A stretch of DNA of 64,000 nucleotides. Source: Rhizodiscina lignyota. Its lineage: Eukaryota. The position numbers were made by a program, and so were the translations under genes. Positions 348 through 33,765 of the stretch are shown here, piece by piece. The notes under the pieces were generated by a model. The model did not search any database. It was not told the origin of the DNA and was given only the letters and a program-made list of their open reading frames with translations. The stretch lies in assembly GCA_010015805.1 (NCBI GenBank), contig ML978124.1, positions 1-64,000 on the forward strand, written 5' to 3'. Positions within the stretch are counted from its first letter, which is position 1. Every line of letters begins with the position of its first letter.

Positions 348-411
348 CCGTCCATTCCACCCTTCTTTTCACGTGATTGTATATCGCCAATTCCAGCTCG
401 GTCTGAACGAT

Positions 412-951
412 TTATTCTGCAACTCTTGGACATGGGCTTTGATCTTGTTGCCCACTCGCTGCTTCGCCATCTTCCTCCTTGCTTTCAGCGGGCGCAGCGT
501 CTTTGAACACCGCAAAGCTCGACGGCATTTCCCCCAGGACAGGAAAATGAAAGCCGCACTTGGGACATTGCTCGTGCAACACGGCCTGCTCCTGCGCGAG
601 ATCGTACTTCTTGTCCTGCGTCTCGTTGCACACGGGGCACACGCGGAGCAGTCGGGTGCCGACGAGCTCGAAGTTGGTGATGATGTCCTCCATGATGGCG
701 CCGTTAGCGGCCCACGTTTTGCAAAACTTGTGGTAAGTGTCCTTGTGCCAGTCATACAGCGCACCGCGGCTCGTCCAGAAGCTGCATTCGTTGTACCAGC
801 TTCGGTCGTCCGGGTGCTCCCACCACGTCAGGTGGAGGAAGCCCGGGAGTTTCATCAGGTGCCGACGCGTGTCGGCGAAGAGGACTTTGAACTTCTCGTA
901 CGCGTCCGGGCTAGAGAAGCGCACACGTTGCATGCTGAGATAGATCGTCAT
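412..951 (-). CDS. ABM-like (dimeric alpha+beta barrel) protein with C-terminal zinc ribbon; intronless, bacterial-looking
   Basis: 179-aa ORF with LPGFLHLTWW...SFWTSRGALYDWHKDTYHK (ABM-type PGF...W-x-S...W...H pattern), then CPVC-x20-CPKC. Fungal-style start context CAGCATG with a C/T-rich leader. Confidence 0.7.
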   Translation of the reverse strand: MTIYLSMQRVRFSSPDAYEKFKVLFADTRRHLMKLPGFLHLTWWEHPDDRSWYNECSFWTSRGALYDWHKDTYHKFCKTWAANGAIMEDIITNFELVGTRLLRVCPVCNETQDKKYDLAQEQAVLHEQCPKCGFHFPVLGEMPSSFAVFKDAAPAESKEEDGEAASGQQDQSPCPRVAE

Positions 952-2062
952 GCTGTATTTGCGAGGGAGGTTTGTGAGGGAAGCTTCAATCGAAATAACT
1001 ATCCTATGTTTCTGGAAGTGGTGCTGTGCGTGTGAGGAGAGCGACAGAAAGAAAGCGTTTAATACCTAAAGTACTTATGGGTTGGACGACGTATATGGCC
1101 AAACAACCCGAGCGACCAGAGGATCAGCCAAACTCACTAAGATAGCAGAAATGGGCTGGACGCGATATCAGTAAAGTCGATTCGATCGACATGATTGAGA
1201 AGCATGGTTTTGCGGACCACGCCGCTCACAACAGTCTCCGTGTCTTATACGCAGTAAGGAGTCCAATAAGCCACCAGTACAATCGTCTCTGAGTAAAGAG
1301 TTCTCTGTGACTCGCTATCTTTCGAAACTATAACGTAGATGGTCGATTCCCACGTGAGCGCGCGGGACGTAGTGGGATTAGTGTACAATATGCAGATTGC
1401 AGGGTATATTGCGCTAGTCGAATCAGGCGCAACGACTCATGGAACATAAGGGTAAGAATGTCAACGTCTCGTTTTGTTCAACTACGATCCATTACCTCGC
1501 TATCGACACCTTCACAGTGTCCAAGCCTCATATCCCTTTCCCATGAGCATTCACTCCCGCCCCATCACAGCTTCACTACTAAAAAGTCGCTCAAATCTCT
1601 CTGTGGGGTCATTAAAAACTCATCCGAACTGATTGGCACCATGCTGAAGCTTCGGCTGGTCACCGTCGTCGATTAGCAAGATGAGACGTGATCAGATTAC
1701 CATTTGCTATCGATCCGAATGAAATACACAGGCTAAAATTTATGCAGCGATGTTGTCATAAGAGAAGCTGAGTTCGGTAGCATCTAAGAGACATACATGA
1801 AAATCGATTCGCACTGGAACGAGTACGCGCTGTGTCCGCTCAACTACAAGCAATCCTATGAACAATCACTCCAACGCCGGAACCTTCTTAGCATGAGCGT
1901 ACCGCTCAGCGCTAGCCACACAAACGGCAGACTGCTATTCTGCTTTGGACAAACATCATCCCTTCACATTAATGTCATTCCTTCCAGTCCCAATTCGCCG
2001 ATCTGGAGCTTCCGCAACGCAACTTGCCCATTCTCGAGTTCTTGACACATCTGCACAACAAT

Positions 2063-2658
2063 CTAATTGCTGAAGAAATATGTGGCTGCGGCCACTGGCC
2101 CAAGCTTCGCCTGCTTCTCGAAATTCGAAAGATCCCATCTCATGCGATCCTTGATACCGTATCCACACGCTTTCGTAAACTGTCCTACATCACAGTCCTC
2201 CGGCTGTTGATAGAGAAGGAAGAGATATCGATGCGGACTGCTGATTGGTGGAGGACGTGGGGGCGCCCAGAAAGCGATCACAGGATCGGAGGAGGTCAGA
2301 ACACCACTTGATGCCTCAACCTCGAGGCCAGTCTGTAGCCAGTGTAGGGCGGGACTTAAAGGCGCAAAAGAAGGAAAGGGTGCATCGATGTCAAGACTGA
2401 TGACAATGAACTTCTGTCCCGAGAGCGCATTCCAGGTAAGTGTTGGGAGCCCATGAGCTTCTAACAAAGATCAGGTTAGCGAAAGAAGCGCACATTATGG
2501 TTTGCATCGTCGCGCAACGGATCCGTAACTAACTCACCTCCTTTGGGAATCTTCTCACCGGGTTTCACCTCGCGGGTCCCGAACTTCAAACCAATGACTT
2601 TCGAATCATCATTCTCAATTAGTGACAGCACCGCTTTGATGATCGGATTATCTCCCAT
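2063..2658 (-). CDS. PEBP/RKIP family protein (Tfs1-like), 2 exons, about 172 aa
   Basis: Exons 2658-2538 and 2460-2063; intron 2461-2537 (GTGAGT...GCTAAC...TAG). Motifs LDIDAP, LHWLQ and PPP-ISSPHRYLFLLYQQP are typical of PEBP. Confidence 0.88.
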
Positions 2659-3337
2659 GGTGAAGAAAGTAAAGCTCCGCAGTAATTTCGAATGCGGACT
2701 CCTTTCTGTATCTAAGATAAAGGGAGGAGTGATTTGTCAATGTCAGTCGTGTAAGAATATAGCCTGAAAAGGGATCGGCAGATGTTAAAAACCTTCTACG
2801 GAGTATGGGAGTAGGAATAAAAGAATTATAATCGCCACCGGTGATGGCTCTATTGCGACTACTGTGGTGATCCATCCATAATGGCTTTGGATGCCCGGTC
2901 CCGGGCCGGTTCCGGAAATGGGGCCGGAGTCGCTCCCAGCCTGGACTGTTTGTTGATCGAGCGATGCAACGAATAACGCGCGAAAACTTCTCAACGCCTG
3001 TATTTCACAGTCATTCGGCGTGCTCAGTCATTTAGCCCTCAATTCCTTCTAATTCCGATCCCTGAAAGCGGAAATACCCTACTTAAACGCCTTCGTACAC
3101 GCCTTGTTGTGAACATGGCATCTTTCTCTGCTTCAATTATCAAGACAGGCAACAGCAGAGAACTGTTTTTGGTAGCTAAACGGCGATAAACCGTCTCTGT
3201 TTTCTACTTTAATAGGTATTGCAATTCCCCAGTTATCAATATTTCGTGAATGGGCTGATGGTTTTGACACAGACACACGTTTCTCAGTAGACCCTGTCTA
3301 CTCATCGCCACGAACAGTTACCGTTCTCTCTTGTGAC

Positions 3338-5079
3338 ATGAACAGCGAAGAGAAAATAAGTGTCCTTCCCGATAGCGATGATGCCAAAGACACCAAAAAT
3401 ATCTCTGGGCCAGATGCTTCCGATCCACCAGCGTCAGAGCCAACGAAGAATTACATCGAAGCTCAAAATGCCGACTTGACGCTATCAAGGACCAAAAGCG
3501 AGAAGCCGTACACAGCCTTTTCCCCCGCTGCCAAATGGTTTATCGTAGTCATGACTGCCATGGCATCATTCTTCTCACCTCTATCCGGGCAGATTTACTT
3601 CCCTGTCCTGCCAATCCTGACAAAGTCCTATCATCTATCTGAGAGTCTCATCAATGTCTCTGTTACAACGTATATGATTTTCCAAGGTCTCGCACCGAGC
3701 TTCATGGGCACATTCTCCGATGCCAGTGGCCGAAGATTGGGATATATTCTTGCCTTCACCATCTACACAGGTGCGAATATTGGTCTTGCGCTACAGGATA
3801 ACTATGCGGCCTTACTCATACTGCGGTGCCTGCAGAGCGCGGGCAGTAGTGGCACAATTTCATTCGGTTACGGTGTTATTGCTGATATCGCCACTACCGG
3901 AGAGCGAGGGAAGTACTTTGGTCCGATGGCAGCAGGTGTCTTGACAGCGCCAGCCCTCGGACCAACCATTGGTGGTCTCTTGACGCAGTTCCTTGGATGG
4001 AGATCGGTCTTCTGGTTCCTGACAATTATCAGCGGGGGCTATCTTGTGCTGTATATCATCCTCATGCCGGAAACGCATCGCGGGATTGTAGACGACGGAA
4101 GCATTGTGCCGGATCAATGGTGGCGCCAGTCACTAGTGCAATATCTAGCCGCTCGACGTCGGCTGAAGAGAATGAATGTCGACGAAAAGGACGATTATGA
4201 GCGTTCGCAGCAAGCTCTTATAGAACGGCGGCAGGCTACGAAGATCCGTTTCCCAAATCCACTTGGATCCTTTGTCATCCTTACGAACCCGGACGCATTC
4301 TGTCTCATCATGTACTCGGGAATAATGATGTTCTGTAACTTAGTTCTGATGACAAGTACGGCAACCGTGTTTCCTGGTTTGTACGGCCTCGACGAGCTGC
4401 AAGTGGGACTGTGTTTCCTGTAAGTTGGACTTGTCTTCTCGCCAATTCAATGCATCGGTACTGACTGAGACATTAAAGACCGCTCGGCATTGCTGCCACA
4501 GTCGGCTCCTTCTGCAATGGACGTCTTCTCGACTGGAATTACCGCCGCACTGCACTCAGACTAGGACTCACAGTGGACAAGAAACGTGGCGACGATCTTC
4601 GCAATTTCCCCATTGAGCGGGCTCGCCTCCAGAACGTTTTCTTCTTCCAAATATTGCAGATGGCCGCTTATCTGCCTTACGGCTGGGCCCTCCAGAAGCA
4701 TGCTTCCCTCGCGGTGCCACTCGTCTTGCAAGGTATTTTGGGCCTCTGTTTGGTGATCACATCGAATTCGATAAGCACACTACTTTCCGATATTTACCCC
4801 AGGAATGTCTCAACTGCGTCAGCAGCGTCGAACCTCATCCGCTGCAGCTTGGGTGCCATTGGAGCGGCTGTCGTAAATGATATGTTAACCGCCATGGGAT
4901 TAGGTTGGGGTTTCACCTTCATCGGCTTGCTCATGGCGGCAGCGATTGGCTTCTTGTGGGTCGAAGTGGTATGGGGAATGGGATGGCGGCAGAAGCGTTG
5001 GCAGAAACTGGAAGCGAAGCAACAAGCCGAGAAAGAGAAAAAGGCCCAGGACGAAGCCACTAAGGAGCCTGCGGCATGA
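3338..5079 (+). CDS. MFS drug:H+ antiporter (DHA1/QDR-like), 2 exons
   Basis: Hydrophobic ORFs 3338-4423 and 4573-5079 are joined by an intron at about 4420-4478 (GTAAGT...CTGAC...AAG), giving ...LCFLPLGIAATVGSFCNGRLLDWNY. Motifs YFPVLP, SDASGRR, GPTIGG and AASNLIRC are present. Confidence 0.92.
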
Positions 5080-5708
5080 ATCTTTTAGAATGACTGCGTT
5101 TTTCTGTTTTGGGCTTGCATATTGACGTCTTCAACGTGAGCAATATCAAAGTCGAGGTGGGATTTGCTAGGAAAAGAGAGATGGCGGAGGACTCGCTTTT
5201 GTCGGCCGATTTGTGTGGGCGTACGTTTGGGCATCCAAGGCACCGAGATACCAAACTGTCGACAGTGAATTTACTCGTAAAATAGATGGAGTGGGTACTG
5301 TCCATGAGTGTAGAGACTGGGATTCTCTAGTAGATTTCACAGAGACAGAACAAACGAGAGGACTTTAAAGGATGCTAGAGTGTGTATGATACACTCACTA
5401 TCCCAATCAGTCCTCTGCTTCAACGGAATGCGATGTCTTCCTATTGCTCGCGCCCTCTTGTACACCGCTCCCACCTTCTGAATCTTAGCCATATTTTCCT
5501 TTTGCGCTCTTCTTTGCACTGCTTCGACTCCTCGCAGCTTAATTACCTCCTCTCCAGCGCTCTTCTTTGCTCCGATTCTACTCCTTGGCGATTCGCGGCC
5601 CTCTACTGTGAGATATGCTTGTTCCATGAGTGAGGCCCTCATCTCTTCCCATTTCTTCTTGATGGCCACAGCAAGGTCGCGTGCGGATGGTTCACGGTCT
5701 TAAAGAGC

Positions 5709-7586
5709 TTAGGCCTCATTCCTCTCTGCGTGCAGCACCTCCAACCATTTCCTAGGGAATATCTTGATCACGAACAGTAGCTCAATCGGGCCTAGATATT
5801 GGCCTCGGCTAATCTCACGCACTTGGCCGCACAGCACAGAAACCCAGTGATTTGGCAGAAGAAAGGAGCCGGCCGTATGTTTTGCGCCGGTATCAGTGGA
5901 CAACTGACCTTTCTCTGTTGCGCGAAAACAACCTGACAAGGACGGTTGGGACATCCAGCGCCTTTCGTGGATTTGTTTCTGGACCCAGAGATCAATCGAG
6001 AGGACTTCCTTTCCCGATTCCGAAAATGTTACACGACCACAGGTTTCCTGGCCCCATCGTACAGTCCAGCCAATCACTTGGCGCTCGTCAGAGGTCCTGT
6101 CAGTCACATATATAGTGTTGACATCCTCAACTCTGATCGAATCAGTCCGGCTAACGTCGTATTTACACGATAGGGATAAGCTAGTAAGCGCAGTTGGGAA
6201 ACGAATGTCTGGAGCAGGTTCTCCAAGCAGGATGGTGCGAGCAGTTGGGGGAAGGTCATCCAGGATGATGAATTGGTCAACATGGATTCGTTTCAGTTCT
6301 GCACCTCGGACGTACAAAAGAATCCCCAGGTAGTTCTGTGGGCGGCGGCCTCTCATTGCGGACTTCGACTTCAACTCCGACGACTCTGTTTCCATGTGGC
6401 AGTTCAAGGCCATTACACAAAGATTCTTGAAGTTCACGCTGACTCTGAAGCAGTAGGCTTTAACCTGTAGGCCTCTGTTCGTGACTGTAAACGGCTTGTC
6501 CATTGCCATCAGGAAATGATTTCTGAACTGAGAAGGTCGAACCATTGCTGACATTTTGAAGTCCCTGGGAGATTTCGCCAATGGCACATGGCTATAGGAG
6601 GGCGTTAATTCAAAATCTCGCCGCCAAGCAAGAATGGACATGTCGTTTGATATTTTCATGATTTCTTCTTGTAGACGATGGAATGCTTGCGTGCCTTCGC
6701 CATAGAGCATTGGCATATTAACAGCGAAAATACCCATAAGGCAGTAGGCCATATCCTCGGAGCGTGAAGTTTCACGTTGTGATGCCCATGACATCCGTTG
6801 CGCGATGCTTCGCTCATGTATGTGGCGAGAGTCTGAAAGAGCATCGCTATCGATTCCGGTAATCCGCTGCAGGATAGCCGTAAGGGTGTATTTAGTACCA
6901 ATCTTCTTCCAGCCTCCAGTGAAAAAGACCACGTGCTTTGGTGCAATCAACTCTTGCAGGGTCCACCCTCTCGTGAACCAGCGAGACTTTGCAAATTCTG
7001 AATTTTCGATTGCAAACGAGTCGACATTGATTTGGGTATGAGAGTCAAAATCTTCATTCGAATCGATGCCGTCATCCAAGTCAATATCGTCATCTGAGTT
7101 GATATCGTCATCTGAGTTGATATCGTCATCTGAGTAGACACCATCATCAGGGTCGACATTGTCTTCAGAGTCGACATCGACATCCATATCGGCATTCAAA
7201 TTGGAGACCGAATCAGAAAAGGAGGCCGACTCGAATAAGGGGTCGACATTGACGACGTCGGAAAGATACGCATAGCATACCTCTGATCTCTGGTACCATC
7301 TGAACATCGAGTTGAGCGCTTCTTGGAGTTCTGCGCTACTGCTTTTATCTATGCAGCAGGTATCGATCCAGCAATACTCTAAGCCATCGTCGCGAGCCTG
7401 ATCACACACAAATTTCACCTTGATGAATGAAGCCTTCAAAGCTGCTTGCTGAGGTCCCATGGCCATATCCTGAAATAGAATTTCATCTTCAGGTGCGCCC
7501 CACGTGTGCGATAGAATCGCATACGGTGGAGGATCATCAGACGAGACGTTTTCAAGCTTGAGCGAGGCTGTATGCAAAAGGCGCAT
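5709..7586 (-). CDS. HET-domain (heterokaryon incompatibility) protein with acidic repeat insertion
   Basis: MRLL...PPYAILSHTWG, WIDTCCIDKSSSAEL, NSMFRWY, SRWFTRGWTLQELIAP, SIAQRMSWASQRETSR-ED-AYCLMGIF-VNMPMLYGEG: canonical HET-E-type N-terminal HET motifs. No NACHT or WD40 domain follows. Confidence 0.93.
   Translation of the reverse strand: MRLLHTASLKLENVSSDDPPPYAILSHTWGAPEDEILFQDMAMGPQQAALKASFIKVKFVCDQARDDGLEYCWIDTCCIDKSSSAELQEALNSMFRWYQRSEVCYAYLSDVVNVDPLFESASFSDSVSNLNADMDVDVDSEDNVDPDDGVYSDDDINSDDDINSDDDIDLDDGIDSNEDFDSHTQINVDSFAIENSEFAKSRWFTRGWTLQELIAPKHVVFFTGGWKKIGTKYTLTAILQRITGIDSDALSDSRHIHERSIAQRMSWASQRETSRSEDMAYCLMGIFAVNMPMLYGEGTQAFHRLQEEIMKISNDMSILAWRRDFELTPSYSHVPLAKSPRDFKMSAMVRPSQFRNHFLMAMDKPFTVTNRGLQVKAYCFRVSVNFKNLCVMALNCHMETESSELKSKSAMRGRRPQNYLGILLYVRGAELKRIHVDQFIILDDLPPTARTILLGEPAPDIRFPTALTSLSLSCKYDVSRTDSIRVEDVNTIYVTDRTSDERQVIGWTVRWGQETCGRVTFSESGKEVLSIDLWVQKQIHERRWMSQPSLSGCFRATEKGQLSTDTGAKHTAGSFLLPNHWVSVLCGQVREISRGQYLGPIELLFVIKIFPRKWLEVLHAERNEA
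7045..7195 (-). repeat. 18-bp tandem repeat inside the HET CDS, encoding [IV][DN]SDDD-like hexapeptides
   Basis: atatcgtcatctgagttg at 7084-7101 and 7102-7119, a partial copy at 7120-7135, and degenerate units on both sides. Confidence 0.9.
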
Positions 7587-8807: not shown

Positions 8808-11529
8808 ATGGACAAGGTTCAAGAATTCCACGACCAGCAGTTAAATGAGACCCAAAAAGGTCATGTTCAAACTGCTATCAACGCCGTACGTGTATTGATG
8901 TCCTCCAAGCTAATGTGGCCGTTAATTGACGTTTCAAAATAGGCGTCCCAGATGTTCGAGGCGGTAACGGGGATCATTACAGGCGGAGGTCAGTCAGGGA
9001 AAAACTCCACTGGAGCCCAGGGAGAGAATGCTACTGGAGATGGCAAGCAAGAAGCTCAAGGGGCAGAGGATCAGTCTCAAAATAAGGAGGGAGATGAGCC
9101 GAAGCCGGAGCAAACGAGCAATGACTCAGCCATCAGCGCTGATGAAGCCCAAGCAAAGGATAAGAGCCAGTCGAAAGATCAAGATGATGCGGCCGACACC
9201 AGCAAGCCAGAGCAGCAGAAAGACGTGACAGACTCCACCAATACTGAAACTCAAGAGCAGTCAAGCAAGGGTGACTCCTCTGAAGAGCCACAAGATACAT
9301 CAACGGGAGCGAAGGACGGGACGACTGCTGGCCCTTCCGATCCTGAAACGAGCAAAGACGATTCTCAGGCAGAGCCAAAAGAGCAACCTTCGGGAGCTGC
9401 CGAATTTACTGAGTCACAAGAACAACCAGAAGCTGACAAGTCTTCCGATGACAAGAAGGCCGAAAATGAAGGTGCTAGCCCCGAGGAGATGAAAGATGCC
9501 GGCATAACCAAGACAGAACCGGACCTTCTTGAAGCGTCAGAAGATAGTCAGCCCAGCAGGGAAGAAGCTCAGAAGAGGGCTGCGGAGAATGATCCAACCA
9601 GTGAAAATCAGGAGGAGACTGGCAGCCAACAAGAGTCTGAAAAGCCGGCGGAATCGAAGGATGACGATCGCGAGGAGGCGTCCAAGGATCAAACTGAAGG
9701 AGGAAACAATCAAGATGACGGCGCTAGTGGCTTGAAGGGTGCTGTCGCCGAAGCTACCCCGGAAAATAATCACGAGAATGAATCTAAAGATCGTTCTGAG
9801 GAGAGTGCCCAGGATACCTCTGAGGACAAGCCTGAACCAAAGCAGGATGAGAAGCTGAGCGGTCAGCCTGAAAGTGGAGAACAAACGTCTCAGCCCAGCG
9901 AAGAGACACCATCGCAATTCGAGGACGCTCAGGACAAGCCCGAAGAGAAGTCTGAGCAAACGCAGGCTGTGCTGGGTGAGAAGCCTGAAGAGGGAGAGCA
10001 GGCTAATCAGGACGATAAAGGAGACGAGCCTTTGACTCAAGAAGGTGGTCAAGAAAATGATAAGCCAGAGAGCGGTGAGAACAAAGTCGAGGACATCGGG
10101 ACACACAACACTGAAGGGAACCTGCCAGAAGCGTCAGAAAAGGAAGGACCCAGTGCGGACGATGCCGGTGAGAAGGCTGAGGATAATGGCCGTAAAGTGG
10201 AAAGCTCGGCGGATGCGCAGGCCGGTAAAGACGAACAACCGAGAAAAGATGAGGCAGAGGTGGGAGACCAACAGCAAGGAGATGAGGAGTCCAAGAGCGC
10301 TATGGAGTCGAGCAAACCCACCAATGCCGCCGATGCCACCGATTTGAATGATGCAAACGAACCCGATGAATCGAACGCACCCAACGATGCAAACAAAGGC
10401 AACCAGGCTAATGAAGACAATGAAACAAAGGCCGCTGGCATGAATGAAATAGAGCCAGGTCTCATAGAAGCGTCAGAGACTGAGCAGCCAAGTTCAGACG
10501 ATGCCCGACAGAAGGCCGAGGAGAACGCCCCTCAGCTCGAAGAGCCAAACAATGAGTTGGGCGGAGAGAAGCAAGATCCAGATGAAAGAGCCGGAGACGA
10601 CAAGCCAGAATCCGATAAGCAAGCCGGAGGTGACAAGTCAGAAACTGACAGACAGCCGAGTCAAGAAGATTCGAAGGCAGATGAGCAGGAAGATGTCAGT
10701 GAACCCAAACAAGTTGGTGAGACTGACAAACCCGACGATGCGAACAAAGCAAGCGACGCCAACGAAGTAAAAGACGCTGGTATGCACGAGACAGAGCCAG
10801 ACCTGTTAGAGGCGTCGCAGACTGAGCAACCGAGTTCTGACGAAGCGCGAGAGAAGGCGAAGGAGAATGCTCCAACCGTCGAAGGTTCAAGTGATCAGCA
10901 AGGCGAAGGCGACAAACTACAGGACGATGAGCCGAGAAATGAGTCCGCCCCGGGAGACCTGCAGCAGCAGGACGAGAGTTCTGCGGAAGTTAAGGAACCT
11001 GGCAGCGCAGAGTCCCAGGGCGACGGCATACCTGGAGCATATCAATCTGGAGAGAAGGAAACAATAAAGACTGATGACTCGGCTCCCGAAGCGGCCGACT
11101 CTCAAGATCCCGAAACGTCCAAGCCAGATGCTGATAACGTCGAACCAAAAACTGAAGACTCGCAATCGAAGGGAACAGATCCCAACTGGAATCGCCAGGA
11201 GTCCTTACTTGAAGCCGGCGAGTCTGCGCCACAAGGATCTGACCCCAGCAGCGCGCGCGAGTTACCCGATCGCTCTAACACCGGAGATACTGGAGACGCT
11301 ACAAACTTGAGCAAGGTAGATACACCGATGGCGGATCAGCAGCTCAATTCTGGTGATGGGATTTCTGCGGGAAACGATGTGGAGGAGGAAGATGATGGTA
11401 CCGCAGGTAAGCGAGCCTAAGTCTACATAAGATGCGTGCATGCTAATTGTCGGAGAAGATTCCTCTGGGAAGAAGGAGAAGTTCACGGACAAGATGAAGA
11501 GGAAGATCAAAGAAGTGCGCCAGCACTAA
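8808..11529 (+). CDS. Large acidic, hydrophilic, probably disordered protein with internal ~36-aa repeats (hydrophilin/dehydrin-like), 3 exons
   Basis: Exon 1 8808-8885 (MDKVQEFHDQQLNETQKGHVQTAINA); intron 8886-8942; long E/D/Q/S/K-rich exon; intron from 11407 (GTAAGC...GCTAAT...AG); last exon DSSGKKEKFTDKMKRKIKEVRQH*. Confidence 0.8.
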
Positions 11530-31023: not shown

Positions 31024-33765
31024 TCAATATACAAAGTACGTTTGCGTGAGTGGCAAAGATGTGGAAGGCTCGGCGGTGCACACCATCCCGTCCGCTTCAA
31101 CAGTCTAGCAAAGCATCGTTAGCATCGCCATTTCCCTTTTAAGGAAATTTCAGAAAACTCACATAGCTCTCCGGATCAACTTTCATCTTCGGTTGCAAGT
31201 CGTTAAACTTCATATCCTTCTTTCCAATCTTTCGACATTCCTTCACAGCCTCAATTCTCTTCCGTAAGCCGTACTTCTCCACAGCACCCGACTCAATACT
31301 CGCCTGCGACACAAAGGTGACGCTCATGCCCGGCACAAACGTCGCGAACATCGGCCTCATAATAATCGGCTCGACAGTCGGGATACTCGCGTTTGGATCG
31401 CCCATCTGCGCGTAGCTGATCATTCCGCTCTTCACCACCAGGCTCGGCTTCGTGCCGAAGTTCGCTGGATTCCAGATGACGAGATCCGCTAGTTTTCCGG
31501 GCTCAATGCTACCGATTAGATACCCCATGCCTTGCGTTATTGCCGGATTGATTGTGTATTTCGAAATGTACCGCTTCACCCTAAAATTATCCGCATCGGT
31601 GCCTTCATCTTCTTTCAGGGTACCACGCTGCACTTTGTTCTTGTGAGCGGTATTCCACGTCCGCAGGATGACTTCTCCGCATCGGCCCATAGCCTGTGAG
31701 TCGGACGACATCATGCTGATTGCGCCTAGGTCATGAAGAACATCCTCCGCAGCAATCGTCTCCGCTCTGATACGGCTCTCCGCAAACGCGACGTCCTCGG
31801 GAATATTTCTACTCAAGTGGTGGCACACCATCAGCATATCCAAATGCTCGTCTAGCGTATTTCTGGTATATGGCCTTGTCGGGTTGGTTGAGGATGGCAG
31901 CACATTGTCGTGTTCGACCACCGAGATGATGTCGGGGGCATGTCCGCCTCCGGCGCCTTCGGTATGATAAGTGTGAATGGCCCTGTTCTTGAACGCTTTG
32001 ATTGTCTGCTCAACGAAGCCAGACTCATTCAGCGTGTCAGTGTGAATGAGACATTGAACATCATACTCGTCGCACACTGAAAGACAGGTATCGATCGCAG
32101 CAGGTGTTGTACCCCAATCTTCATGAAGCTTCAGACCACAAACACCTGCTTCGCACTGCTCTTGCAGACCCTTCTTCATGCTATCATTGCCTTTTCCGGT
32201 AATGCCGAAGTTCAGCGGCAACTCATCACAAGCTTGCAGCATCTGCTTAATGTGGTTCGCGCCCGGCGTGCAAGTCGTCGCATTCGTGCCAGTACTCGGT
32301 CCAGTACCTCCTCCAAGCATCGTGGTGATGCCCGCAGCAATGGCTTCGTATGCTTGCTGTGGACAGATAAAGTGGATGTGGGTGTCGAATCCACCTGCTG
32401 TAACAATCTTGTGCTCGCCGGCAATCACATCTGTGCAGCTTCCCACAACCAACTTCGGATCTACACCATCCATTACATCTGGATTGCCTGCCTTGCCAAC
32501 ACCCGCGATGACGCCGTCCTTGATGCCAATGTCGGCTTTGTAGATACCACTCCAGTCCACGATCAGCGCATTCGTGATGACGGTGTCCAGGCACTCAGAA
32601 TCAGGTCGACCGGATGCTTGGCCCATGCCCTCACGAAGTGTCTTACCGCCGCCGAAGGAGCACTCGTCGCCGTAATGCGTGAAATCCTTTTCGACTTTGA
32701 TCCACAAGTCCGTCGCTCCCAAGCGCACGAGGTCGCCGGTCGTGGGGCCAAACATGCTGCAATAAGCTTCGCGGTCCATGGAAGCCGTGTCGATGTGCGC
32801 CGAGTCACCTGCTGGCTCTGGAGCGTGGAGGAAGCCACCCTGTTGCAGCTTTTCGACGATGCTCTCTGCGATGGATGTATCGAGAATATGACCCGGTGCA
32901 ATGCTATTGCCTCCATTGATGATCTGGTTCCCCCCAATCTGCACAAGCGTCACAGTCTTGCTGTCTCCAGGCTCGAAACGGACGGACGTGCCAGCTGGGA
33001 TGTCCAAACGGTATCCATGCGCTCTAATGCGGTCGAATTCAAGCTGCGGGTTAGTCTCGATGAAGTGGTAATGCGAGCCGACCTGGATTGGCCTGTCGCC
33101 CTTACTAACAACCTTCAACTGGATCCTCTTCCGTCCCTCGCTAAGCTTAATCCTCCCTTCCTTCACACAGACGACCGCTCCGGGTTGCTTCTTCGGCTCG
33201 TAGTCTGCTGGATCTGGGAGCGGGAATTTGTCCTGCGATGGGATAGGCAAGAAGCTACCATACAGTGCTTTCTCCAGATCCCCATCATCCGAGCTGACGG
33301 GATTGTGTACGGTGACAAGGTAGGTGCCGCTTGGAAACGTGCCCTCGATCATGAGCTCCGAAAGTGAACTCACGACTGATGGAAGAACATGTCGTCGGCC
33401 GAGCATTTGCTTGCCGATGGACATGAGATCGGCGACTGTGTGGTTGCCATCGCGGACGAGCTATTGAGGATGTTTAGTTGAATTTGTTGTTCAAGTGCTC
33501 GGACATGCGGAAGAAGGGATACCTCTTGCAGATTGTTCGCTATGAGTGCCTGTCCCTGTTAACACGGAAAGTCTCAAAATACGTTTATATTCATACCGTA
33601 GCTTCAGCATGATTTAATTTGACTCCTCTAGCCAGTCTTCTCTGTGCAAGAAGTCCCAATTGCGAAATCACGAACTTGTCAAGCTGTTGAACCTCTTATC
33701 AGCAAACGTTCGTTAAGGTCATTGCCTGGGAGTGGTTCGAATACCTCCTTTGGCACGAGATGCAT
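31024..33765 (-). CDS. URE1: Urease (single-chain eukaryotic gamma-beta-alpha fusion), 5 exons
   Basis: [17 protein letters not shown]...[81 protein letters not shown]. Last exon [26 protein letters not shown]. Confidence 0.98.

Follow-up and report, generated by a model that had tools for sequence, protein, structure and literature searches.

An ABM-Cys4 gene of very probable bacterial origin in the fungus Rhizodiscina lignyota, with a likely role in amine catabolism

Introduction

What does a small intronless gene encoding an ABM domain and a four-cysteine ribbon do in a filamentous fungus, and how did it arrive there? The question is raised by a locus near the start of contig ML978124.1 of Rhizodiscina lignyota (assembly GCA_010015805.1), of which we analysed positions 1 to 64,000, referred to here as the window. 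An initial annotation had proposed that the gene was acquired from bacteria, and had named IsdG-type heme enzymes and sulfur oxygenase reductase as relatives of its ABM domain. The movement of bacterial catabolic genes into fungi is a known kind of event.

Results

An intact gene in fungal DNA

We identified an uninterrupted, intronless open reading frame (ORF) of 179 amino acids at 412–951, as initially annotated, and assigned it to the minus strand, which had not been specified before. The product comprises an ABM, or ferredoxin-like, half-barrel (residues 1–98; 658–951, minus), a Cys4 ribbon (residues 100–137; 541–654, minus), a short conserved C-terminal motif visible in the alignment and modelled with low confidence (residues 138–151; 499–540, minus), and a variable tail that the model suggests is probably disordered (415–498, minus). 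Residues 14–75 matched Pfam ABM (PF03992) at E 4.9e-6, with a score of 27.1 bits where the gathering cut-off is 23.1. The first 100 residues contain six Trp and five His, and the four cysteines are spaced Cys105-x2-Cys108-x20-Cys129-x2-Cys132; in these respects our reading coincides with the earlier one. A search of the 33.4-Mb genome turned up a single copy.

The homologue search gave 368 of 397 candidates at E ≤ 0.001. Relative to four low-GC, probably fungal, loci, codon position 3 was far more divergent than positions 1 and 2 (0.48–0.71 versus 0.90–0.96). The homologue count and this codon-position pattern indicate a conserved gene rather than a chance frame; the ORF is real, intact, and conserved. 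The abundance of C- and G-ending codons pointed out previously is borne out by a GC3 of 0.74 (0.82 in codons 1–152), which exceeds that of all 22 window ORFs of at least 200 amino acids (0.50–0.71). The high GC3 is not a bacterial relic, because four probable fungal copies range from 0.55 to 0.70. The flanks, earlier described as AT-rich, are not notably so (46–47% GC versus 50.9% for the window) and lie close to the genome-wide mean.

A microsatellite does lie alongside, as had been noted, but it is the tail of a dispersed repeat and not a feature of the gene. The repeat end occupies 1–347 (no strand assigned) and finishes in (CT)n at ~328–347, ~65 bp beyond the stop codon. It has 11 matches in the genome (76–100% identity). 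The copies share a common end, followed in the four copies read by (CT)n of differing length, while the other end varies. One common and one varying end suggest that the repeat is a retroelement tail, probably a non-LTR 3′ end. Copies occur on G000 contigs C11, C25, C16, C15, C23, C10, and C1, several of them at contig ends.

On the other side lies a PEBP-family gene (2063–2658, minus) with a 77-nt GT-AG intron (2461–2537), which anchors the ABM-Cys4 gene in eukaryotic DNA. It is followed by an MFS transporter gene recognised by its ORFs and family match (3338–5079, plus; open frames 3338–4423 and 4573–5079, probably split by an intron) and by an intronless HET-domain gene encoding 625 amino acids with an internal Asp-rich repeat (5709–7586, minus). 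A contig from a public sequencing run, with a depth of 158, spans 359–7113 and joins the ABM-Cys4 gene to the PEBP, MFS, and HET genes, which supplies the continuity with the PEBP gene that the initial annotation had put forward as a check; the assembly may have been built from this run, in which case the two are not independent. The depth is uniform along the contig and higher in the repeat alone. Since one uniform-depth contig carries the ABM-Cys4 gene together with intron-bearing fungal genes, the gene is not a contaminant, nor does the contig look chimeric. At a second fungal locus (L083), the gene is likewise physically located in eukaryotic DNA.

Elsewhere in the window, an 822-amino-acid ORF (8952–11417, plus) is strongly A-skewed and purine-rich (AT skew ~0.5 at 9–11 kb) and probably low-complexity or repetitive. 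A 414-codon open frame (32123–33364, plus) runs antisense to a 761-codon ORF (31142–33424, minus) that appears urease-like by eye.

Distribution and bacterial origin

The nearest named proteins come from two Exophiala species (96.7% identity over 152 amino acids). Named fungal homologues occur in Fusarium, Clonostachys, Diaporthe, Sarocladium, Exophiala, Fonsecaea, Knufia, Paecilomyces, Aspergillus alliaceus, Cercospora, Pyrenochaeta, Kalmusia, Paraphoma, Trypethelium, and others, and cover the Sordariomycetes, Eurotiomycetes, and Dothideomycetes. Among the named matches listed, the eukaryotic ones belong to the Pezizomycotina alone; most matches are unnamed. The bacterial family is rare but wide: two search patterns found 223 stretches in 185,579 species genomes, and the gene was found in none of the 250 members sampled from a single actinomycete order. 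Both Actinomycetota and Proteobacteria include carriers, and the two-domain layout is the same in every one. The architecture earlier regarded as unusual for a fungus is bacterial and no fungal fusion, since it exists already in bacteria. One metagenome homologue (P0014) carries an in-frame insert of 16 residues resembling an intron left unspliced. Both longer matches considered as Rosetta-stone fusions (two of 122 candidates) look artefactual; the linker of P0624 appears out of frame, and P0625 includes only part of the domain.

All 29 fungal rows formed one clade in two maximum-likelihood trees (SH-aLRT 99 in the first, from which four duplicates were dropped; 100/99 in the second, which has 72 rows and omits six long outgroup rows, Pseudocercospora, and about half of the bacterial loci). 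The clade lay inside the Actinomycetota in both trees and was nested in an actinobacterial clade in the second (97/90). AU tests on 44 rows and 153 columns rejected neither a monophyletic Actinomycetota without fungi (p 0.33) nor a placement of the fungi outside the bacterial ingroup (p 0.39), which leaves the donor likely rather than proven. The case for transfer also rests on amino acid identity and on depth of diversity. The fungal core is 82–86% identical to six of the seven named actinomycete proteins compared, with Pseudonocardia, Rhodococcus, and Microbacterium proteins in this range, and 77% identical to the seventh; non-fungal relatives extend down to 20–45% identity, a much deeper diversity than within the fungi. 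These data suggest that the gene is very probably of bacterial origin, as first proposed, with an actinomycete as the most likely donor.

The best explanation of the fungal distribution is one old transfer, kept in many Pezizomycotina. Broad vertical spread across fungi had been named as an observation that would count against acquisition; three classes do share the gene, and in both trees the fungal copies nest within bacteria. Within the fungal subtree resolution is poor and the branching does not track the classes, which leaves room for duplication, loss, and fungus-to-fungus movement. The intronless frame, the high GC3, and the position at a contig end could instead reflect contaminating bacterial DNA, a chimeric contig, or vertical descent within eukaryotes. 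Such readings are already largely refuted and, in our judgement, very improbable, given the uniform-depth contig over the gene and its intron-bearing neighbours (subject to the origin of the run), the near-identity to the Exophiala proteins, the presence of the gene in many independent fungal assemblies, and the restriction of the named eukaryotic matches listed to the Pezizomycotina.

Fold and conserved residues

The predicted model, of middling confidence (pLDDT 70.5, pTM 0.51), contains a ferredoxin-like domain (residues 1–98), a small β-ribbon, and a low-confidence tail. The monomer has the ferredoxin-like βαββαβ topology. Fold searches, which barely cover the ribbon, returned dimeric α+β barrels only, at 5–21% identity (Foldseek best E ~1e-5; VIA Z up to 11.8 over ~100 residues), in agreement with the fold initially assigned. 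By analogy with other ABM barrels, the protein would be expected to dimerise.

SnoaB was the top Foldseek match (E 1.2e-5, 17% identity), and one of the Rhodococcus jostii RHA1 copies lies ~10 kb from aromatic ring-cleavage-type genes, as we read these unannotated ORFs. Both would fit a cofactor-free oxygenase or cyclase of the SnoaB or ActVA-Orf6 kind, with an aromatic compound or secondary metabolite as substrate. However, the fold matches are near-tied across many functions, and the bacterial neighbourhoods show no recurring polyketide or NRPS genes. SnoaB, ActVA-Orf6, LsrG, YgiN, and PA0709 all share the fold with the ABM-Cys4 protein but are 5–21% identical to it, have no metal ribbon, and occur in other contexts. 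We consider such an activity improbable.

The best PDB profile match was YqjZ-like (E 8e-5 and 4e-5, both weak scores), and 4NPO heads the structural list (Z 11.8, rmsd 2.8, 101 residues aligned), with about a dozen others within 1 Z. The YqjZ-like proteins (Bacillus subtilis YqjZ, 2GO8; 4NPO; 2FB0) have an S-x-W...W-x5-H helix pattern in common with the ABM-Cys4 protein but lack its ribbon and conserved C-terminal motif; they are also uncharacterised. The accessible part of one study groups YqjZ, 4NPO, and 2FB0 together as non-heme proteins whose packing (Type-2) resembles that of the heme enzyme OxdA (PMC4835899).

Within the half-barrel, Phe12, Gly37, Trp68, and His74 are invariant, and Gln8, His46, Glu55, Ser57, Trp59, His69, and Glu88 nearly so. 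His74 (730–732, minus) is the sole His invariant across the widest family alignment; its conservation makes it the candidate ligand, which probably binds heme or a metal. The IsdI triad is Asn6/Trp66/His76 (PMC4835899), and an Asn/Trp/His triad is treated as defining the IsdG type (PMC5557675), in the portions of these papers available to us. A match of equal length to IsdI (residues 2–80 in both), combined with the published numbering, would place Gln8, Trp68, and Lys78 at the triad positions, with the invariant His at Trp+6 rather than Trp+10. Membership in the IsdG type therefore fails. The monomer fold, the Trp at the Trp66/67 position, and an amide residue at the Asn position resemble IsdG, IsdI, MhuD, and HmoB; the His one helical turn away, Gln in place of Asn, the extra ribbon, and an amine rather than iron gene context set the ABM-Cys4 protein apart.

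The four ribbon cysteines are invariant in 19 diverse sequences. Among 121 sequences, Cys105 and Cys108 are invariant, and Cys129 and Cys132 are present in at least 90%, which accords with the metal-type ribbon proposed earlier. Ribbon families matched residues 101–138 weakly, with sub-cut-off matches to both zinc-ribbon and rubredoxin-like kinds. In the tail, a Cys-Pro dipeptide (427–432 in R. lignyota) occurs in 10 of 42 fungal and none of 77 bacterial sequences; the fungal tails are otherwise unalignable. The Cys-Pro dipeptide is a heme-regulatory motif, and the tails may give a hint, only a hint, of a link to heme.

These tails, the automatic annotation name of family members (HmoA), a weak HmuQ match (21.9 bits, where the cut-off is 130), the presence of IsdG and IsdI among the Foldseek matches, and a dmmA-like gene in 15 of 30 carrier genomes might be attributable to an IsdG-like protein that degrades or handles heme, either for iron uptake or for heme enzymes such as dimethylamine monooxygenase. 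The altered triad and the His six rather than ten residues past Trp (PMC4835899, PMC5557675, as available) argue against this reading, as do the bacterial loci, which show no recurring heme-uptake neighbours beyond a TonB receptor in some sphingomonad loci. We regard it as unlikely.

The two remaining barrel families with defined chemistry were also considered. Sulfur oxygenase reductase has a 2-His-1-carboxylate Fe site and an essential Cys. The ABM-Cys4 protein has one invariant His, its Cys56 and Cys77 vary, and no match to this family was found at E ≤ 1; a function of this type is not supported, and the gene context points to amine catabolism. For aldoxime dehydratase, no PF13816 match appeared at E ≤ 1, and the protein has a single barrel domain. 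OxdA and sulfur oxygenase reductase are not among the 50 structural matches listed, which is no evidence against either.

Bacterial gene neighbourhoods

We compared the best-scoring 80 of the 223 bacterial loci; many are from related Acidimicrobiales and Solirubrobacterales, so that the counts are not independent and overstate independence. Methylamine-utilisation genes were present in 39 of the 80 loci (gmaS 29, mgsA-like 31, mgsC-like 29, dmmA 7, dmmD 6, MADH-type mauB 1); gmaS and the MocR model scored above curated cut-offs, whereas mgsA/C and several other names are best matches below them. Bicupin (17), aldehyde dehydrogenase (9), or acyl-CoA ligase (6) genes marked another 18 loci, with no overlap between the two sets. 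An APC permease was found in 36 loci, a PNPOx-like flavoprotein gene in 20, a Mo-oxidoreductase in nine, and an amidase, formamidase, or urea/amide binding protein in four. Eight loci, four of them under 7 kb, contained none of the four main neighbour groups. In 65 mostly short metagenome loci we observed the same neighbour families, with 38 having any. The comparison of neighbourhoods suggested in the initial annotation thus led to amine catabolism, not to an IsdG or sulfur oxygenase reductase function.

A MocR regulator occurred in 30 of the 80 loci, in 28 of them divergently oriented within 146–294 bp, and 22 of 27 MocR proteins retained the PLP-lysine motif. An inverted repeat preceded 24 of the 28 MocR-linked genes compared with 10 of 52 other loci (shuffle mean 1.5), by an operator pattern written after the sequences had been seen. 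The ABM gene often stands alone beside MocR, and no common pattern includes a reductase partner. The mutually exclusive methylamine- and aldehyde-consuming contexts, the amine-sensing regulator, and the stand-alone MocR-ABM arrangement together would be accounted for most easily by an enzyme that splits a C–N bond with no partner reductase.

gmaS scored above the cut-off in 21 of 30 carrier genomes, hand-chosen in part for their neighbours, and not in the other nine, compared with 23 of the 250 sampled order members without the ABM gene. Among seven actinomycete carriers in which gmaS does not adjoin the ABM gene, presumably all members of the sampled order, five have gmaS elsewhere in the genome, against the same 23 of 250. 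As the bacterial relatives lie among amine-breakdown genes, the fungal gene probably helps to release nitrogen from amines.

In genome G001, the ABM gene lies within a cluster that already holds Gma/Mgs, Mgd-like, and Dmm genes, and so does not replace them. This cluster, a MADH-type system at locus L068, and other complete, unrelated amine-oxidising systems beside the ABM gene would make one more amine oxidase redundant. The protein might then be accessory or detoxifying, handling aldehydes, imines, or PLP adducts rather than making the first cut, and the glyoxal-modified ABM protein PA0709 among its structural neighbours and the 20 loci with a PNPOx-like flavoprotein gene would fit. Conversely, the annotated cupin, aldehyde dehydrogenase, and acyl-CoA ligase loci show no amine-oxidising enzyme to supply an aldehyde, and a permease or regulator of its own suggests that the protein acts on a specific substrate. 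We assign this accessory role a minor but appreciable probability.

A small non-homologous stand-in for trimethylamine N-oxide (TMAO) demethylase, which converts TMAO to dimethylamine and formaldehyde, was also weighed. The best NCBIfam match of the permease is a TMAO permease, at a score far below the cut-off (166 versus 690); dmm genes adjoin the ABM gene in seven of the 80 loci, and genome G020 has Tmm and Dmm with no DUF1989 match. Tmm, however, occurs in just three of the 30 carriers, two of which carry a Tdm-length DUF1989 frame, and the aldehyde dehydrogenase and acyl-CoA ligase loci would be left unexplained. This substitution therefore seems quite improbable.

Several arrangements were recorded in passing. 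A Pyridox_ox_2 (PF12900) gene at L071 (3414–4115, minus) and at 19 other loci heads the mgs operon in many Acidimicrobiales and adjoins the ABM gene in two Proteobacteria. An unassigned single-subunit molybdopterin oxidoreductase recurs in several lineages, either adjoining the ABM gene or immediately following it (L025, 1847–3868; L040, L135, L136, and L144). Sphingomonas formosensis (G024) has a tmm-tdm-permease-dmm cluster (L161, 13000–19999) ~160 kb from its ABM-bicupin locus. Plasmid pRHL1 of R. jostii RHA1 carries two near-identical ABM copies (L082, 7661–8350 and 11863–12513), each followed by a different bicupin, and Rhodococcus sp. WS4 has four ABM loci.

A bicupin partner in both kingdoms

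At the second fungal locus, the ABM gene stands head-to-head with an intronless EutQ-like DUF861 bicupin gene (L083, 2278–3123, minus), a protein common to Pezizomycotina and bacteria at 65–76% identity. Consecutive locus tags or accessions pair the two genes in ten fungal species (Kalmusia sp., Exophiala mesophila, E. bonariae, Trypethelium subeluteriae, Cercospora kikuchii, Paecilomyces lecythidis, Fusarium oxysporum, F. xylarioides, F. musae, and F. proliferatum) and probably also in F. verticillioides. In Sarocladium strictum and Fusarium sp. NRRL 66182 the tags are far apart, and two protein queries and a family model found no bicupin in the R. lignyota genome. The link is conserved, not obligatory.

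Unlike the ABM gene, the fungal bicupins cluster with sequences from sphingomonads and not with those of actinomycetes (100/98), and the bicupin, closest to sphingomonad sequences, was probably itself acquired by transfer. Co-transfer of both genes from one donor is unsupported by this grouping; the alternatives are a donor not yet sampled or reassembly of the pair within fungi.

Discussion

Taken as a whole, the best explanation is a transferred bacterial gene for a small self-sufficient C–N-cleaving enzyme of amine catabolism, a combination to which we give an even chance. Its parts differ in strength. A role in amine catabolism is likely; catalysis of C–N cleavage falls a little short of an even chance, and heme as the cofactor is plausible at a somewhat lower level of confidence. 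The description of YqjZ-like structures as non-heme (PMC4835899) counts against the explanation.

In the mechanism we propose, His74 would bind heme or a metal in a cleft lined by Gln8, Glu55, Ser57, Trp68, and Glu88, and the Cys4 ribbon would bind Zn in a structural role or else a rubredoxin-like Fe serving to keep the centre reduced. The C–N bond of a small N-alkyl compound would be cleaved without a dedicated reductase, yielding an aldehyde and an amine or ammonia. The chemistry might be oxidative N-dealkylation, or an OxdA-like redox-neutral N–O or amino-alcohol lyase reaction. Bacteria would then consume the amine through GmaS/Mgs, Dmm, or a TTQ amine dehydrogenase, or otherwise the aldehyde through aldehyde dehydrogenase and acyl-CoA ligase. 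For the fungus, a single gene would open a route to nitrogen or to detoxification.

Known systems offer partial models. OxdA works without a reductase partner, and its related barrel provides the mechanistic model for this explanation; it is a fused two-domain enzyme of ~350 amino acids, whereas the ABM-Cys4 protein has one barrel domain in 179. Tdm and Dmm resemble the proposed enzyme in cleaving C–N bonds of methylated amines to formaldehyde and in their gene neighbourhoods. The folds of Tdm (DUF1989-GcvT) and Dmm (a PAS-type heme multicomponent system) are unrelated to ABM. Synephrine and octopamine dehydratase are orphan activities that would fit the product pattern, though apparently not in subunit size. 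In the accessible part of its description, OxdA cleaves N–O bonds with ferrous heme, a helix His, and a distal Ser (PMC4835899).

A bolder and rather doubtful proposal is that the family represents an undescribed enzyme class: a 17-kDa YqjZ/OxdA-type barrel with a His74-bound heme and a fused rubredoxin-like Fe as an internal redox buffer, cleaving C–N (or N–O, then C–N) bonds of small alkylamines, N-oxides, or amino alcohols without a partner reductase. In soil bacteria it would supply an unrecognised first step in the breakdown of methylamine and alkylamines, and it would have been adopted together with the bicupin by three fungal classes, possibly from two donors, to give the head-to-head pair.

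Our full-text literature search, which covered main texts in a library with few subscription journals, returned no paper on the ABM-Cys4 family, whose members bear automatic names only, and none on its amine link or the cross-kingdom bicupin pairing; the accessible text of PMC5023235 and PMC13390433 has no bearing on the protein. The amine gene context and the bicupin pairing are what is new here, and the pairing in both kingdoms offers a handle on the uncharacterised DUF861 bicupins. If the amine reading is right, the cycling of nitrogen from methylated amines in soils and peat would acquire a further entry enzyme and the ABM fold a new reaction, and a bacterial nitrogen-scavenging chemistry would have been kept in filamentous fungi under strong selection.
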